From Kiritimatiellia bacterium (GTDB lineage Bacteria; Verrucomicrobiota; Kiritimatiellia; RFP12; UBA1067): a stretch of 64,000 nt of DNA. A program made the translations under genes and the position numbers. The stretch spans positions 93,968 to 157,967 of the forward strand of contig JAFXEU010000052.1 in the NCBI GenBank assembly GCA_017520845.1, given 5' to 3'. The notes beneath the pieces were generated by a model that was not told the DNA's origin, ran no database searches, and saw only the letters and a list, made by a program, of their open reading frames with translations. This document shows positions 14,321 to 23,449 of the stretch, piece by piece; the first letter of the stretch is position 1, and the number at the start of each line of letters is the position of its first letter.

Positions 14321-15928
14321 TTATATTACCTCAACACCGGTAATAGACGAAACTCTACCTGGACCGCCAGCGCCGCCTAAATTATTAGCAACCGAGGATC
14401 CCGCTACAGCCGCCTCGCCAGGTCCCCCGGCACCGCCGCCGCCACCGCCGACACGACGCTGAGACCCTAAACCACCATTGTTGCCATACCCACCAAAAAT
14501 AGACCCTGGCTGTTGGGCATCACCTCCAAATTGCGGAAGAACTGTAGAATTGCTATAATCCGAAGAACCGCCGCCGCCAGATCCGCCATTATTACCGGCA
14601 GATCTAATACCGCCACCGCCGCCGCCCAAAGCTTCATACTTTGCAATATCCGAAAGTGAAATCTTAGAGGACTCACCATTTCCACCATTACCCTGAGTCT
14701 CGGGTGAAATACCGCCCCTGCCGACTATAATATCGTAAGATCCGGCCTCTAAATAAACCCCCGTTGCTTCTATCATACCGCCGGCACCGCCGCCGCCAGC
14801 ACCACCTTGATTAAGATTAGCTCCGCCAGGATTCGCGCCCGCGCCGCCGCCACCGACTACTAGAATGTCGGCTTTAACGGCCTTCGGCAATATAAATTGC
14901 GTTGATACTGCAGTTTCTGTAATCGAAAACACCTTATTTTCGACATTTTCTTCAACATTAATGACAGGAACATCAATCGTATAGCGAACAATAACAACGC
15001 CCGATCCGCCCGCGCCGCCGTACGAATTACCGCCGCCGCCAGAGCCACCACCGCCGCCAGAGCCCGTGCCCGCTTGACCGGATGAACCTGTAGAACCCGT
15101 TGCCGCGACACCACTACCGCCTACGCCGTTACTGCCGCCTACGCCGACAGCACCGCCATTGGCATTACCGCCGCCGCCACCGGCCGCATAAATCTTATCT
15201 TCGCCTGAAATATCGTAAGATAAACCGTCTCCTCCGTTGCCGCCTGCAGAAGAGGTGGCGTTCTTGCCCGCGCCACCCGCGCCGCCGCCGCCGCCTTTAT
15301 TATTACCATTACCCTTACCGCCGGCATTGCCAAAACCGCCCGATACGGAAGTCGCCTGCTGAGCGGCACCGACAGTGCCGCCGCCGCAAGCTCCGCCGCC
15401 CGAACCGCCGGCAGTACCTGCCGTGCCGTTATAATATCCGGCAGTACCGCCGCCGATCGCGGTATACGAAACGCCATTCAAAGTAAAAACCGTATTTGCG
15501 CCGTTAGAGCCGCGCGAATTAGCCGTCGCACAAACACCGCCCGCACCGACAGTAACCGTACCCGAAGCGACAGTAAGGCCTTCTTGATAAATTAAGCCGC
15601 CCGCGCCGCCGCCGCCGCCGCAGTTTCCGGAGCCCGAGCCGCCGCCGCCGACAACGAGAATTCTGCCTGAGCCTGCGCGGATGACATTCTCCGTCGGAAC
15701 CGTAAAATTCGCGGTCGTAGCAGTGTTCGTAAAGATGTGGATAAAGTCAACGGTTCCGTCGCCGTTATCGATTTTACGCACCTCGTCACCACCCGTCGCG
15801 GCGGAATATTTTTCGATGTCCGCTTGGCTTGCGACATCAAACGAGGCCCCGCGAGCAAAAAGCGACCCTATAACCGCGGTGAACGCGGTTAGCGTTTTTA
15901 AGAGGCCTCTAGCGCTTATCAACCTCAT
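14321..15928 (-). CDS. Signal-peptide-bearing glycine-rich N-terminal part of the same giant protein (ends at premature TAA)
   Basis: Signal peptide MRLISARGLLKTLTAFTAVIGSLFARG, then two tandem glycine-rich domains (ILVVGGGG...GGGGAGG...YAAGGGG). The second is cut at GVEVI*AAGGGG. Confidence 0.85.
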   Translation of the reverse strand: MRLISARGLLKTLTAFTAVIGSLFARGASFDVASQADIEKYSAATGGDEVRKIDNGDGTVDFIHIFTNTATTANFTVPTENVIRAGSGRILVVGGGGSGSGNCGGGGGAGGLIYQEGLTVASGTVTVGAGGVCATANSRGSNGANTVFTLNGVSYTAIGGGTAGYYNGTAGTAGGSGGGACGGGTVGAAQQATSVSGGFGNAGGKGNGNNKGGGGGAGGAGKNATSSAGGNGGDGLSYDISGEDKIYAAGGGGGNANGGAVGVGGSNGVGGSGVAATGSTGSSGQAGTGSGGGGGSGGGGNSYGGAGGSGVVIVRYTIDVPVINVEENVENKVFSITETAVSTQFILPKAVKADILVVGGGGAGANPGGANLNQGGAGGGGAGGMIEATGVYLEAGSYDIIVGRGGISPETQGNGGNGESSKISLSDIAKYEALGGGGGGIRSAGNNGGSGGGGSSDYSNSTVLPQFGGDAQQPGSIFGGYGNNGGLGSQRRVGGGGGGAGGPGEAAVAGSSVANNLGGAGGPGRVSSITGVEVI

Positions 15929-16037
15929 ATTTAGCCTTTATTTACGGGCATTTTACAACTTATCTACATTTTACCGTACGACAAATTCCACCCTGATTTT
16001 ATCAAGGCAGAATCCTTTGTATACTAGTATCTAAGCC

Positions 16038-16067
16038 ATATTATCATATCCAACCGAAACGCGTCAA
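16038..16067 (-). promoter_or_regulatory. Putative sigma70 promoter of the giant-protein operon
   Basis: Minus strand TTGACG-N18-TAATAT with TG before the -10, about 110 bp upstream of ATG 15928. Confidence 0.45.
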
Positions 16068-16148
16068 TCAGAATTTCAATAACCCAAAGTTACCGAAACA
16101 ACTCTTTCAAGGAACGAAGATTAATCATCCTCACACCTCTAAAGTTTC

Positions 16149-16403
16149 ATAAACTCCGATGGTTGTTCAAAAGGGGGCTCACTAACGTTCCGCCCTATAC
16201 GCTTCGCACATCCTAACCGCTGTATTTCTCTCATCCGGTTACTTTCTTTTATCTCTGGGGTTCCACCCCAGACCCCCTTCCCCAAATGCCGAAGGCATAT
16301 ACAAAAAACAATGTACAATAAAGCATACACCAATGCGGTTATAAAGCGCGTAGCCCATAACACGAAGCGTTAGCGAAGTGCATCGGTAACCTATCGGAGT
16401 TAA
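16149..16403. repeat. ~253-bp fold-back repeat, copy 1 (MITE/REPIN-like or structured RNA)
   Basis: Starts ATAAACTCCGATGGTT and ends AACCTATCGGAGTT. Near-identical to copies 2 and 3, with internal nested complementary blocks. Confidence 0.9.
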
Positions 16404-16427
16404 TTAATTTTAAGGGATTCAATTCTT

Positions 16428-16679
16428 ATAAACTCCGATGGTTGTTCAAATGCCTCCACTAACGCTCCGGCTAAACGCTTCGCACGTCCTAACCGCTGTA
16501 TTTCTGCTATTCATTTACTTTCTTTTATATCTGGGGTTCCACCCCAGACCCCTTCCACAAAATGCCGAAGGCATATACAAAAACAATGCACAGTAAAGCA
16601 TACACCAATGCGGTTATAAAGCGCGTAGCCCATAACACGAAGCGTTAGCGAAGTGCATCGGTAACCTATCGGAGTTTAT
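16428..16679. repeat. ~253-bp fold-back repeat, copy 2
   Basis: ATAAACTCCGAT...ATCGGAGTTTAT terminal inverted repeat. Direct copy of 16149-16403, ending 8 bp from the GxxExxY stop. Confidence 0.9.
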
Positions 16680-16687
16680 CTAAAATC

Positions 16688-17080
16688 TCAAGAAGACGGC
16701 AAATTCGTTAATTCAAAAGTATCATATTGAAGTTCCTCTTTCCCGAAATTGATTAGCATCGCATAAGGTATTTTTGTTGCGCGAACATAATGTATAACCT
16801 GCGCCCATTCAATCTTAGTGATTGATTTTATAGCTTTCAATTCAACAAGATACGTCCGATCATAACAGGTAAAATCTGCGCGATATCGAGTTTTTAGACG
16901 TACGCCCTCATAATAAATATAAACCTCATCTTCCCGTATATATGGTATACCATGTTTTTGAAACTCAACCTCCAAGGCATCACCATAAGTAGATTCTAAA
17001 AATCCATTTTTAAGAATATTATGCACCCGCATTGCACAACCTAAAATTGCAAATGCCTTAGGATCATCTTTAAGTTTCAT
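16688..17080 (-). CDS. GxxExxY family protein (PD-(D/E)XK nuclease fold)
   Basis: AILGCAMRVHNILKNGFLESTY carries GxxExxY; RADF...LVELKA...AQVIHY...LINFG are family motifs. AAGGGG RBS before ATG 17080; extended -10 TGGTATAAT at 17102-17110. Confidence 0.9.
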   Translation of the reverse strand: MKLKDDPKAFAILGCAMRVHNILKNGFLESTYGDALEVEFQKHGIPYIREDEVYIYYEGVRLKTRYRADFTCYDRTYLVELKAIKSITKIEWAQVIHYVRATKIPYAMLINFGKEELQYDTFELTNLPSS

Positions 17081-17157
17081 AAACACCCCTTTCGCAAATT
17101 GATTATACCATAAAACAATTCCAATAAGACAATAAAACTTCTCATCCTCTTAATTTC

Positions 17158-17410
17158 ATAAACTCCGATGGTTGTTCAAATGTCTCCGCTAACGCTCCGG
17201 CTATACGCTTCGCACATCCTAACCACTGTATTCTTGCTATTTATTTACTTTCTTTTATATCTGGGGTTTCACCCCAGACCCCCTCCACAAAATGCCGAAG
17301 GCATATACAAAAAACAATGTACAATAAAGCATACACCAATACGGTTATAAAGCGCGTAGCCCATAACACGAAGCGTTAGCGAAGTGCATCGGTAACCTAT
17401 CGGAGTTTAT
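17158..17410. repeat. ~253-bp fold-back repeat, copy 3
   Basis: Same termini and internal hairpins; lies upstream of the GxxExxY gene. Confidence 0.9.
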
Positions 17411-17483
17411 AAAATCTAAGCAACGCGCAGAATCTACAAATTCCACTCTCGAACTTGAACTCAAAACTCCAACTAACTAAACC

Positions 17484-17511
17484 AAAAGCCCGCGACCTCT
17501 CAGCCACGGGC
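17484..17511 (-). terminator. Rho-independent terminator
   Basis: Minus strand GCCCGTGGC-TGAGAG-GTCGCGGGC-TTTT downstream of the 17548 stop; homologous to the hairpin at 19820-19860. Confidence 0.7.
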
Positions 17512-17547
17512 CCCACTAACGACTAACGACTAATCACTACCGACTAA

Positions 17548-19368
17548 TCACCTAACAATAACCTTAAATCCCTTAATCGGATCCTGCGAATAATAAAGCG
17601 TCTTCTTATCCTCATCCCACTCGAGTTTTGCACGGCGACTGCGTTTCACATCCACACCATCAGCCGTAACAACGAGCTTGCTGGCGGTCATCGTCATCGT
17701 CTTCATAGCATTTTTGGTATTATCATCAAGCGTTCCCTTAAACTGAATAAGAGGAACCAATTCAGCGTTCTTATTATAATTACTTACGTCTATATTCATC
17801 GTACAAGTGTCGCTACTATGCAAGAGACTAGCAAGCACATAAGAAGTTGAGTAAGGCGTTGCAGGAATCTTAATGTAATAGGTACCGCCTAATTTCATTT
17901 TTTTATAGCCAGAACCTTCTGCGGCTATAAGTCGAGCTTGACGATCCGGACCATCAAAAAACCGCATTTTTTGAGTTGCAAGCACTTTGTCTGAATCATG
18001 CTTAACATGCCAAATCGCGTTTGATATTATGACCTCTTCAGCCCCATAAAAATCTGTCGAACCATACGATGTATACAGTTCTCCATTCTGAACGGTAAGA
18101 CTATTTCCAGTGCTGTAAGCGGGGTTATACTTGAAATACCCTTTCGTTGTCGAGGTAGACTTTTCTACAGATGTCTGCGGATTATTTAATACCACCTTAT
18201 ATCCGGCAGGTATATTTAATTCAAATGTACCATACTCATTCCTAGGTTCATCTATATATGAAATTCCTATTTTATCCAATGTCAATGTGGGGCCTGGATT
18301 GGAACCTAAAGCCTCGCTATTATTCCAGAAGTGGTTATACGTAATCAACAAGCGAGCATTATACAATGTTACTGAAATATTCTTATCTAATTCAAACGCA
18401 CCGTCATCAACAAATCCGTAGGTTTCACCATGCATATCAATACGATCAACGGAATTTGTAAATCTTACACGAGTCCAATACCAGCCCCCGTTCCATGCTC
18501 CCGGATAACCAACACATTCATTTTGATGGTTCGCATCCCAGTTTCGAACATCCTTCCAACTGACGCCATCACCTTTGCCGGTCCACGTATAAACCGTCTT
18601 TTGAAGTTCTGTAGTTCTACGCGACTTTGTTGTTATTGCATATCCTGTCAATCCATCATAATATTTTTTTTGAGTACCATCGCTGTAACAAACAACAACT
18701 TGATAGGTAACAGAGTTATTAATATTATCAAGCGCAATCAAAGCGTCAAAGGTTCCATCATTTGAATTAAGTGTTGCCTCTACACTTTTATTAAGCACAG
18801 AACCATCAACAGCATAATTTACTCGAATCGAAGAAATACCTGCCGTGACATCATAATTACCTAAAATCGAAAATCCAGCACTCGGTTTATAATTATGCTG
18901 CGCTTTTATATTTAAAACACCAGACAAAGGAACTACAATAAATACATCCGTATTACTAAAATCTTCACCAGCCTTAAAAGCCTTATAAGTAATTCTAATT
19001 GCATGCTCACCAGCATAAAAATCTTCCAACGAAGTGTAACCCGTGTTTTCTAATGATGCAGAAGCTATGTCTAAGTCACCTTCATTTTTTAATTTAAGCA
19101 TTTGTTCTTTCGATATAATAACCTTTTCCTTTACGACCTCAGAGTTGCCATTCAACAATTCTATATGTAAATAAGCGTATCGCGTTGAAGATGTATTAGA
19201 ATATCCTAGCACATAACTAAATGTCGCAGTTCCCTGTGCGTCAAAATTTAAATCACTAACATTCAATTTAATATCCGCCCACACGCTGCCGACGCAAAGC
19301 GCGGCGAACAATGTAAGCGCGACCCGCTTCATTTTACGGAAGCACTTACTTAATATTGTTAATTTCAT
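17548..19368 (-). CDS. Secreted hypothetical protein, low GC, short C-terminal KGFKVIVR tail
   Basis: Signal peptide (..ALTLFAALCVGSVWA-D), YTWTGKGDGVSWKDVRNW motif typical of beta-rich passenger proteins, AAGGA RBS. Confidence 0.8.
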   Translation of the reverse strand: MKLTILSKCFRKMKRVALTLFAALCVGSVWADIKLNVSDLNFDAQGTATFSYVLGYSNTSSTRYAYLHIELLNGNSEVVKEKVIISKEQMLKLKNEGDLDIASASLENTGYTSLEDFYAGEHAIRITYKAFKAGEDFSNTDVFIVVPLSGVLNIKAQHNYKPSAGFSILGNYDVTAGISSIRVNYAVDGSVLNKSVEATLNSNDGTFDALIALDNINNSVTYQVVVCYSDGTQKKYYDGLTGYAITTKSRRTTELQKTVYTWTGKGDGVSWKDVRNWDANHQNECVGYPGAWNGGWYWTRVRFTNSVDRIDMHGETYGFVDDGAFELDKNISVTLYNARLLITYNHFWNNSEALGSNPGPTLTLDKIGISYIDEPRNEYGTFELNIPAGYKVVLNNPQTSVEKSTSTTKGYFKYNPAYSTGNSLTVQNGELYTSYGSTDFYGAEEVIISNAIWHVKHDSDKVLATQKMRFFDGPDRQARLIAAEGSGYKKMKLGGTYYIKIPATPYSTSYVLASLLHSSDTCTMNIDVSNYNKNAELVPLIQFKGTLDDNTKNAMKTMTMTASKLVVTADGVDVKRSRRAKLEWDEDKKTLYYSQDPIKGFKVIVR

Positions 19369-19523: not shown

Positions 19524-19819
19524 GAACCGCATCCGCAGTCGTTAAACGCGGTTAAAACGCTATTCCCATTTATATTTATATATCCCATCCTCATTATTTG
19601 ATTTGCAGTATACGATTTTCCCTAAAACATTGCAAGCAAGAATTTTATAGCGATTTTCCCCCGCAGGCCCCTCGCCCTTCTAGCACCTCTAGCCAATATA
19701 GCACATCTAACGACTATTGACTATTCCCTAACCACACTCTTCGACAGAACGTACTCACTCTTCTCCAGTGTTGCTTTTTCTTCTCCCTTTTTGTACCGCT
19801 GCGGAACGGCCAACTCCCC

Positions 19820-19860
19820 AAAGCAAAAGCCCGCGACCTTTCGGCCACGGGCTTCGCTTT
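19820..19860 (-). terminator. Rho-independent terminator
   Basis: Minus strand GCCCGTGGCC-GAAA-GGTCGCGGGC-TTTT, 20 bp after the 19881 stop. Confidence 0.8.
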
Positions 19861-21857: not shown

Positions 21858-21880
21858 TCCCCAGGGGGGACAGTCCCCCT
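21858..21880. repeat. REP-like palindrome, left arm of the RAYT-flanking inverted repeat
   Basis: TCCCCAGGGGGGACAGTCCCCCT; 22/23 match to the reverse complement of 23318-23340. Confidence 0.8.
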
Positions 21881-22141: not shown

Positions 22142-23290
22142 CTACGCCACTATCGGCTCTCGCCAATCGAGCGCCTTGCAACGTTTCGCCGAGCGCGTTT
22201 TATGCATCGGATAATCCGTCGGCAAGCTCATTATCGTCTTCAATGCAAATTCAACAGAACCGATAAATGCGCCTTTGAAAATCTTCAACGTTACCCGTAT
22301 CGCCTGCGATGCACGTATCTGCCTTTTCCAAGGCTTCGTCTTTTCGTCATTCGATTGATGCGGATGCTCGCGATAATACTCAGCTTTTGCAGATTCATCA
22401 TCGTAATAGTCGCATATTGTTTGTAGTTTCTCGGCCGACAGATCATCAGGTAATTTATCTGCGAATATCGCTTCTATTTTGGCTTTCGCTTCTGGCCATT
22501 TTAGACCAAGCATTTTCTCATACATCTTGCGGCATTGCCTGGCGGCGTCCCCCTCGCCCATAGCGGTTGCGAAACTGTTCCATCGCCATGCCGACGGAGT
22601 TGATGTTAATTTTGCCTTAACCGGATTATAGTCAATATATGCCGCGACAATCGACAAAACTTGAGAAGTATTTTCGACCAGCCCGCTATAGAACCTACCT
22701 TGCCAAAGAGCGCCTTTATGACCGTAATCCTCGTTGAACATTTTAGTTACACGTTCTTTGAACGTTTTCATAAACTGTGAAATATTGTACATCCGACGGA
22801 AGTAGCGTTCTTTTTCTTCTTCTGCCATGTAGCCCGCTCCTGCGGCGCTTGCGGCATTCCAACGGTTCAGCGTCTTCTCTGCGGTTTTGGCATCGTAAAA
22901 AATATGAATACGACGCAAGAGTTCTTCATCGGAAAGCTTAAACCCAAGCGGTGGTCGAGGTAAGGCCTTAATAGGAACGTCATCGTCTTTTGACCAAATG
23001 GGTATACGGCATTCTGCTGGGCGCATACCGAAAGCGTAAGACGGAGGATCAATATCGGGATTGACGCGGTACTGTTTAGGTACGTTCGGGACGTGTACGA
23101 GCATATGGATATGATTATCCATTACGCACCAGGCGTAGAGCTCGACTCCGCTGAACGCGGCGGTTTTATACATTGCGCTAACGACACGCTCTTTAACAGC
23201 GTCGCTCTTTAAGAGCATTGCGCCATGGGCGATGCGCGTTGTAACATGATAGATCCCGTTAGGGACACTGATTCTGTTTTTTCTGGCCAT
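22142..23290 (-). mobile_element. REP-associated tyrosine transposase (RAYT, Y1 HUH family)
   Basis: YHVTTR, AWCVMDNHIHMLV (HUH), GALWQGRF, AYIDYNPVKA (catalytic Tyr), WRWNS motifs; flanked by palindromes. Confidence 0.9.
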
Positions 23291-23317: not shown

Positions 23318-23449
23318 AGGGGGACTGTCCCCCTTGGGGAGATGGAAAGATTATCGCATTTTTCAGAAAAAGAAGTGTTACATTTGTGTTACATTTTCGT
23401 TACATTTTTGTAACGTTAATGTAACACTTCTGCAAAGGGGACTGTCCCC
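23318..23449. repeat. REPIN-like unit: two GGGGACTGTCCCC palindromes enclosing GTTACATTT repeats
   Basis: Palindromes at 23318-23334 and 23437-23449. Inner inverted repeat AGAAGTGTTACATT / AATGTAACACTTCT and three GTTACATTT at 11-nt period. Confidence 0.8.

Follow-up and report, generated by a model that had tools for sequence, protein, structure and literature searches.

GxxExxY nuclease gene among long fold-back repeats in a Kiritimatiellia genome, and inverted repeats around GxxExxY genes at large

We analyzed a 64,000-nucleotide stretch of contig JAFXEU010000052.1 from a Kiritimatiellia bacterium (hereafter the window), in which a gene of the GxxExxY family, encoding a predicted PD-(D/E)XK nuclease, stands among three long fold-back repeats termed c1, c2, and c3 (Table 1). 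Seen from the gene, c3 lies upstream and c2 and c1 lie downstream. An earlier interpretation made from the letters of the window alone (the sequence-only reading) had described three direct copies, one upstream and two downstream of the gene, and had proposed either a selfish element whose nuclease recognizes or mobilizes the structured repeat or a system of nuclease and noncoding RNA. The described arrangement was confirmed by sequence inspection and by BLAST, with c1, c2, and c3 being direct copies of 89.5–94.5% pairwise identity over 252–257 nt. Palindromy extends ~10 nt beyond the cores originally given (16149–16404, 16428–16679, and 17158–17410), giving the wider bounds used here. Contigs (C) are numbered within each genome; G000 denotes the genome of the window (116 contigs, 92.1% complete), and G001, G008, and G056 denote other genomes.

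Table 1. Features at the GxxExxY locus and the nearby transposase gene, in window coordinates.
Feature	Position	Strand	Remarks
Fold-back repeat c1	16139–16414	−	In tandem with c2; −94.5 kcal/mol
Fold-back repeat c2	16418–16689	−	Directly 3' of the GxxExxY stop codon; 94.5% identical to c3
Right arm of c2	16638–16679		Complementary to left arm of c3 (17158–17199); 42 nt, 71% complementary, 478 nt between
GxxExxY / PD-(D/E)XK gene	16688–17086	−	132-aa open reading frame (ORF); PF13366, TIGR04256
Extended −10-like box TGGTATAAT	17105–17116	−	Between c3 and the gene, ~25 nt from the ATG; by eye
Fold-back repeat c3	17148–17420	−	Upstream of the gene; rod of ~110 pairs with two apical hairpins
60-nt module (AAGCAACGCGCAGAATCTAC...)	17417–17479	+	Adjoins right end of fold-back
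Intrinsic-terminator-like hairpin of upstream 606-aa gene	17485–17514	−	Just before c3
RAYT/IS200-like Y1 transposase gene	22142–23290	−	382 aa; 4.7 kb away; PF01797, E = 1.3e-12

The family and fold assigned to the gene product by the sequence-only reading were supported by matches to PF13366 (PDDEXK_3; E = 1.1e-29, 103.6 bits against a cut-off of 22) and TIGR04256 (112.4 bits against a cut-off of 35), as well as by a structural model (pLDDT 91.3). Both the GxxExxY motif and the catalytic D...ExK residues of PD-(D/E)XK enzymes are present; G28, E31, Y34, D71, E82, and K84 are intact and invariant in 27 aligned sequences. The likely start codon, judged by eye against the starts of relatives, is the ATG at 17080. 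The model adopts a restriction-endonuclease-like fold resembling the nuclease domain of BpuSI (VIA Z 8.1, rmsd 2.7, 96 residues aligned), with further structural neighbors in a restriction-endonuclease-like protein of Spirosoma (Z 7.8), the Cas4 protein SSO0001 (Z 7.6), and Hjc (Z 6.2). Foldseek returned generic PD-(D/E)XK neighbors only, every match having an E-value above 1e-3, and a sequence search of the PDB gave nothing below E 0.7. The predicted structure shows a generic nuclease core of the restriction-endonuclease and Cas4/RecB type, and its fold does not indicate a substrate. Neither PHROGs nor PADLOC matched the locus. A section of one study lists the function of PF13366 as unknown and reports multiple transfers (PMC3424549).

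The fold-back repeats carry terminal inverted repeats of 12–22 nt (ATAAACTCCGAT/ATCGGAGTT(T/A)AT), with ends reading ATAAAC and GTTTAT or GTTAAT, and are 253 bp or more in length. The terminal repeats, nested pairings, and both apical hairpins described previously are all present, and the near-invariance of the 3' arm holds on the plus strand among c1, c2, and c3. Loosely periodic YTYCG words, spaced by 11–13 nt, occur in the arms. When folded as RNA, the minus strand of c3 reached −119.2 kcal/mol (z −11.1) and the plus strand −81.9 kcal/mol (z −8.6); folded as DNA, c3 reached −42 kcal/mol (z −6.3). In all three cases, none of 200 shuffled sequences was as stable. The corresponding RNA values for c2 were −116.9 (minus) and −81.2 kcal/mol (plus). 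c1 pairs more poorly and looks recombinant, since one of its arms is of the type found in the copies on contigs C91 and C43. Complementarity between the right arm of c2 and the left arm of c3 places the GxxExxY gene between 42-nt inverted arms. The 60-nt module at the right end of the fold-back recurs at G000:C12:52291-52350, at C63:25380-25423 (beside a remnant), at C90:7342-7397, as well as in G001 and G056, and either belongs to the element or represents a preferred target.

The fold is conserved across species. An alignment of eight copies from four species yielded 52 consensus pairs that are 94.9% paired. Changes on both sides were found at nine consensus pairs, compared with 3.6 ± 1.2 in shuffles (none of 500 reached nine) and 1–3 in slid controls, and the one-sided changes are mostly to G.U. 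The sequence-only reading had suggested a fold and covariance check, and its structural part stood, in that the repeats are more stable than shuffled sequences and show these two-sided changes. A covariance search of positions 15800–17700 recovered no Rfam family (sole match MIR8643, 20.3 bits against 135, E 0.57, at chance level) and no ribosomal RNA (rRNA).

The two strands of the repeats differ in their pairing. All six full copies fold better, by 20–37 kcal/mol, on the strand of the GxxExxY gene, which contains 9–17 G.U pairs, compared with 1–4 on the other strand (minus versus plus, 16 versus 2 in c3 and 15 versus 3 in c2). At eight of nine loci, the exception being C82, at least one neighboring gene has the G.U-rich strand as its sense strand (binomial p = 0.04). 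This asymmetry points to selection on a single-stranded form, RNA or single-stranded DNA (ssDNA) alike, and strand-biased C>T mutation may contribute to it. The idea of a nuclease working with a noncoding RNA receives only indirect support, from the strand-specific G.U pairs and from one metatranscriptome contig (run X17, 313 nt, two differences) covering 16944–17256, which takes in half of c3 and the 5' portion of the gene; this contig is strandless and may represent carried-over DNA. As for the promoter-like box in front of the gene, a promoter consensus scan did not list TGGTATAAT and no −35 match accompanies it; TGnTATAAT-like boxes were seen, again by eye, upstream of five other GxxExxY genes.

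Within the genome, the repeat is scattered independently of GxxExxY genes, an outcome that the sequence-only reading had named as speaking against its proposal. The GxxExxY gene of the window is the only one in the genome, whereas the repeat family occupies eight further loci and, with the window, nine contigs. The neighbors of these other copies are unrelated, including hipBA, abiEii, patatin, glycoside hydrolases, a Na/Pi transporter, and large family-less proteins. Full-length copies outside the window lie at C91:29615-29857 and C43:27371-27611; half-copies are combined with other arms in mosaics on C77, C82, C31, C5, C21, and C12, and short remnants occur on C2, on C43 near 2.5 kb, and on C63. 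A second arm type in these mosaics has the same ends (TTAACC / GGTTAA) as the tandem-word brackets described below. In this 92%-complete genome, the 12-nt end motif was found at fold-back loci only. Sequence resembling c3 occurs in seven of 41 related genomes, the genome of the window included, and a composite query of c3 with other arm types found matches in 40 of the 101 genomes that represent the genus. It follows that the repeats are mosaics spread through the whole genus, among which the type in the window is a young sub-family. The composite query also holds a GC-rich structured module of ~90 nt (G000:C82:17-105, locus L014) that is multi-copy in many genomes of the genus, with up to five copies per genome among the matches listed. 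In a relative of the fold-back at L003:1345-1630 (G008:C89), an array of tandem words (CACAGAGG CACGGAGG CACAAAGG...) has been inserted into the apex; one palindrome type is therefore nested in another.

Filled and empty copies of the fold-back were observed side by side in a sister species. On G001:C34 (locus L088), a 77%-identical GxxExxY gene and its promoter-like box fill ~495 nt at the center of a related fold-back, and a twin ~200 nt onward has arms ~90% identical to it without the ~495-nt gene segment. The copies of the window's genome align to the gene-bearing G001 element (e1), which shares both arms, and retain the first ~35 cassette-side bases of that element (hairpin H1 and CCTCCACA), which the empty twin lacks. 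Compared with the window, the G001 gene is inverted relative to the fold-backs and to the neighboring 606-aa gene. At the same site as in the window, G056 (locus L082) contains a repeat, a 98%-identical gene, one repeat, and a glycine-rich gene; since only one copy lies downstream of its gene, the genome of the window has one extra tandem copy. RNA and DNA contigs of other strains follow the window to 16076 and 17415–17474 and then continue into unrelated sequence, with none joining across the repeats; these positions mark breaks of synteny on either side of the repeat block. The locus was found in the data of eight studies.

In the genus, 66 of 101 genomes contain genes matching TIGR04256; across the phylum, 163 of 301 genomes do. 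For the 30 best-scoring matches of each set, the 400 nt on either side of the ORF were compared by BLAST (E < 1e-3) for a common inverted repeat (IR) or direct repeat (DR). Inverted repeats are strongly enriched around GxxExxY genes (Table 2), with Fisher p-values against the controls of 5e-6 to 3e-14. The bracket arms usually hug the ORF and consist of three tandem words of 8–10 nt, for example TTAACC-ACNGAGnn-CACNGAGnn upstream and a complement ending in GGTTAA downstream. The position of the gene between complementary arms is typical of the GxxExxY family, and the filled and empty pair in G001 backs this. We read the rods of the window as a long-armed relative of these brackets, not as a proven member; unlike the short tandem-word brackets, they have arms that form long rods, bear two conserved apical hairpins, and show strand-specific G.U pairing. 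Some GxxExxY ORFs (L055, L059, L063, L064, L065, L071, and L075) run into the downstream arm, which yields tails such as NPVNPVNPV.

Table 2. Repeats shared by the two 400-nt flanks of GxxExxY genes and of control genes.
Set	n	IR	DR	Either
GxxExxY, genus (30 best, 5 dropped for short flanks)	25	13	7	16
GxxExxY, genus, with author-chosen L082, L087, and L088 added	28	15	10	19
GxxExxY, phylum (30 best, 2 dropped)	28	13	4	14
Control: small ORFs of 90–200 aa, genome of the window	275	2	6	7 (one is the GxxExxY gene itself)
Control: ParE toxin loci of the genus, ORF alone	29	0	1	1
Control: ParE, toxin–antitoxin pair as unit	27	0	4	4

Considering the observed repeats, their conserved fold and gene-independent scatter, the inverted-repeat enrichment, and the filled and empty pair together, the reading that we favor overall is that the repeats are gene-less copies of a palindromic element whose spread would be driven by the nuclease; we hold it with about even confidence. 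On this account, c1, c2, and c3 would be gene-less copies of a fold-back element of 250–320 nt, and the GxxExxY gene would be a self-contained cassette, with its promoter-like box and intact nuclease site, placed in the unpaired gap between complementary arms. That gap would fall between neighboring copies in this genome and at the apex of a single copy in G001. The two would form a selfish partnership: the nuclease may cut in or close to the palindromes that belong to its family, and when the break is repaired from a filled copy, the cassette would be placed in another palindrome in a homing-like manner. The far more numerous hairpins would spread or persist without the gene, and A-type copies may additionally be under selection for pairing within a single strand that has the sense of the gene, be it RNA or ssDNA. 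We infer nuclease-driven spread as the most economical mechanism. The conservation of the repeat-gene-repeat arrangement at the same site in G056 and the presence of one gene compared with eight other repeat loci support this interpretation, as do the alignment of this genome's copies to the gene-bearing G001 element, the invariant catalytic residues and nuclease-like fold of the protein, and the G.U pairing on the gene strand. The sequence-only reading was partly right: a link between GxxExxY genes and palindromic repeats is upheld by the enrichment in genus and phylum and by the G001 pair, but not within the genome itself.

Several observations weigh against nuclease-driven spread. Cassette spread, if any, is rare, because there is one gene for many hairpins. 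The checks that the sequence-only reading had suggested for empty sites and target duplications at the window locus gave neither: no empty site was found, with synteny limited to G056 and G001, and the flanks of c1, c2, c3, and the C91 and C43 copies share no common direct repeat, although spacer modules blur the exact ends. The tested GxxExxY loci were best-scoring rather than random matches and include some kin (e.g., L068/L069 and L061/L063). Wobble pairs are not biased toward the sense strand in the short brackets (26 versus 17 and 6 versus 12), nor does the G001 twin show a G.U asymmetry (7 versus 8). Genes for four-helix-bundle proteins (TIGR02436, '23S rRNA IVS proteins', IVS being intervening sequence), which are found in 198 of 301 phylum genomes, have the same opposed-word brackets, with an inverted repeat at 16 of the 28 loci that were usable out of 30. 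In the window's genome, the only gene of this kind (G000:C62:2533-2847, minus strand) is among these bracketed genes, having (GGGAACA)n upstream and (TGTTCCC)n downstream. The bracket is thus not tied to nuclease cargo, since these non-nuclease genes carry it too. Lastly, the window contains a gene resembling REP-associated tyrosine transposases (RAYTs; REP, repetitive extragenic palindrome) that has at least three near-identical copies (C45, the end of C55, and the end of C68). It is flanked by its own palindrome, GGGGACWGTCCCC, at 21866–21878, 23320–23332, and 23437–23449, rather than by fold-back arms. This element looks active, given these gene copies and the 64 copies of its palindrome in the genome.

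The last two points lead to an alternative that we consider unlikely, namely that the fold-backs are repeats akin to REPs, bacterial interspersed mosaic elements (BIMEs), or miniature inverted-repeat transposable elements (MITEs) moved by another enzyme, most probably a RAYT-like Y1 (HUH) transposase acting on ssDNA hairpins, and that the GxxExxY gene is a passenger in tolerated or recombination-prone palindromes. The multiple near-identical copies of the RAYT-like gene fit this alternative, as does the mosaic structure of the repeats, which BIMEs share. An enzyme acting on ssDNA would also explain the strand-specific G.T pairing and the orientation shared with genes, and the same brackets at four-helix-bundle genes suggest interchangeable cargo. 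However, the GGGGACWGTCCCC palindrome differs from the fold-backs and does not adjoin most of them, the match of the transposase to NF047646 (76.7 bits) falls below the cut-off of 80, and the rods are far longer than REPs. Passenger status also leaves unexplained why such flanks are missing around the ParE genes in these genomes. To a further explanation we give still less credence: the rods would act as RNA, being transcribed together with neighboring genes and folding into long duplexes, which would either be cleaved by RNase III or stabilize or delimit mRNAs, as do the stems of 23S rRNA IVSs, and their repetition would be secondary. This would account for the greater stability of the minus-strand RNA and its excess of G.U pairs in six of six copies, for the one-sided changes being mostly to G.U, for the G.U-rich strand being the sense of adjacent genes, and for the metatranscriptome contig over c3; the RNase III-cut IVS of Coxiella (described below) provides a precedent. 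Against it stand the terminator before c3 and the promoter-like box after it, the lack of an Rfam match, and the absence of wobble bias in the short brackets and the G001 element. Moreover, the RNA evidence consists of contigs without strand, for which DNA in the RNA library is possible, and the asymmetry could be partly due to strand-biased C>T mutation.

It is very improbable that the repeats arose by local tandem duplication of a gene flank without mobility, or that they represent an integron-like cassette array with long attC sites. The tandem arrangement of c1 and c2, the one copy fewer in G056, and the small accessory genes (hipBA, abiE) adjoining other copies would suit such an origin. 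Yet the dispersal of copies over nine contigs and seven of 41 related genomes brings this explanation close to refutation. No integron integrase was found in the 92%-complete genome, the best TIGR02249 match reaching 76.6 bits against a cut-off of 265. The core sites of attC are RYYYAAC and GTTRRRY, and its length is ~55–141 bp; the GTTTAT/GTTAAT ends of the repeats are unlike GTTRRRY, and the element is well above attC size.

The element that we propose, a nuclease cassette with gene-less palindromic copies, resembles three known systems in part. In the sections of PMC4990558 concerned with them, ORF-bearing 23S rRNA IVSs are described as containing a small ORF in the loop of a long stem formed by terminal inverted repeats of ~28 bp, as in helix 45 of Coxiella burnetii 23S rRNA, where a 28-bp terminal stem surrounds an S23p ORF and the element is cut by RNase III; these sections regard IVSs as selfish and of unknown origin, transposition being one proposed origin. 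The gene between 42-nt facing arms in the window, or at the fold-back apex in G001, is similarly placed. The window element nevertheless lies between two protein genes rather than in rRNA, has a PD-(D/E)XK cargo rather than an S23p or four-helix-bundle one, and has arms that are whole 270-nt rods. REPIN and REP–RAYT systems, according to parts of Bertels and Rainey (2011; PMC3116915), likewise combine many gene-less extragenic palindromes, foldable in ssDNA or mRNA, with a single enzyme gene, or a small number of them, bordered by those repeats, in species-specific families. The present enzyme fold is instead PD-(D/E)XK rather than HUH/Y1, the units are 250–320-nt rods of ~52–110 pairs rather than short inverted REP doublets, and the RAYT-like gene of the genome is flanked by a different palindrome. 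MITEs and their autonomous insertion sequence parents share the terminal inverted repeats, the fold-back shape, the many short copies, and a longer gene-bearing relative with both arms in common (the G001 element e1). In contrast to a MITE parent, the gene encodes a nuclease of 130 aa without known strand-transfer activity. No DDE transposase with these ends was found in the genome (92% complete), in which the 12-nt end is confined to fold-back loci, the ends matched none of the insertion sequences that could be compared, and target duplications were not observed. The ShiLan HNH element, as far as it is described in parts of PMC11855218, was also compared and is not related.

More broadly, but tentatively and with doubt prevailing, GxxExxY nucleases and their surrounding palindromes may constitute a self-recognizing selfish system built on a 130-residue PD-(D/E)XK enzyme, comparable to REPIN–RAYT systems or to MITEs with a parent. 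The rRNA IVSs, the intergenic tandem-word hairpins, and the 270-nt rods would then be one undescribed class of palindrome-bracketed mobile cassette, in which the rods must also fold single-stranded. The habit of GxxExxY genes of lying inside palindromes is widespread and apparently undescribed in the literature, in which we found no paper linking these genes to palindromes. Of the small bacterial proteins of unknown function, those of the GxxExxY and four-helix-bundle families are some of the most common. If their position inside palindromes reflects spread, one explanation would cover two orphan families, the origin of rRNA IVSs, and numerous hairpin repeats in intergenic regions. Concrete substrates for biochemistry are available in the G001 pair of filled and empty copies and in the genome with a single gene and many hairpins.

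Two other repeats were observed in the vicinity. A palindrome of GTTACA words (GTGTTACATTTGTGTTACATTTTCGTTACA...TGTAACGTTAATGTAACAC) lies at 23377–23430, upstream of the RAYT-like gene, and recurs upstream of its copy on C68. Tandem 7-nt words (CTAACGA / CTAATCA) occur at 17516–17558 and 19707–19735, in each case between the stop codon and the terminator of a gene; the two genes are successive, and their terminators are 86% alike (17469–17511 versus 19810–19852).

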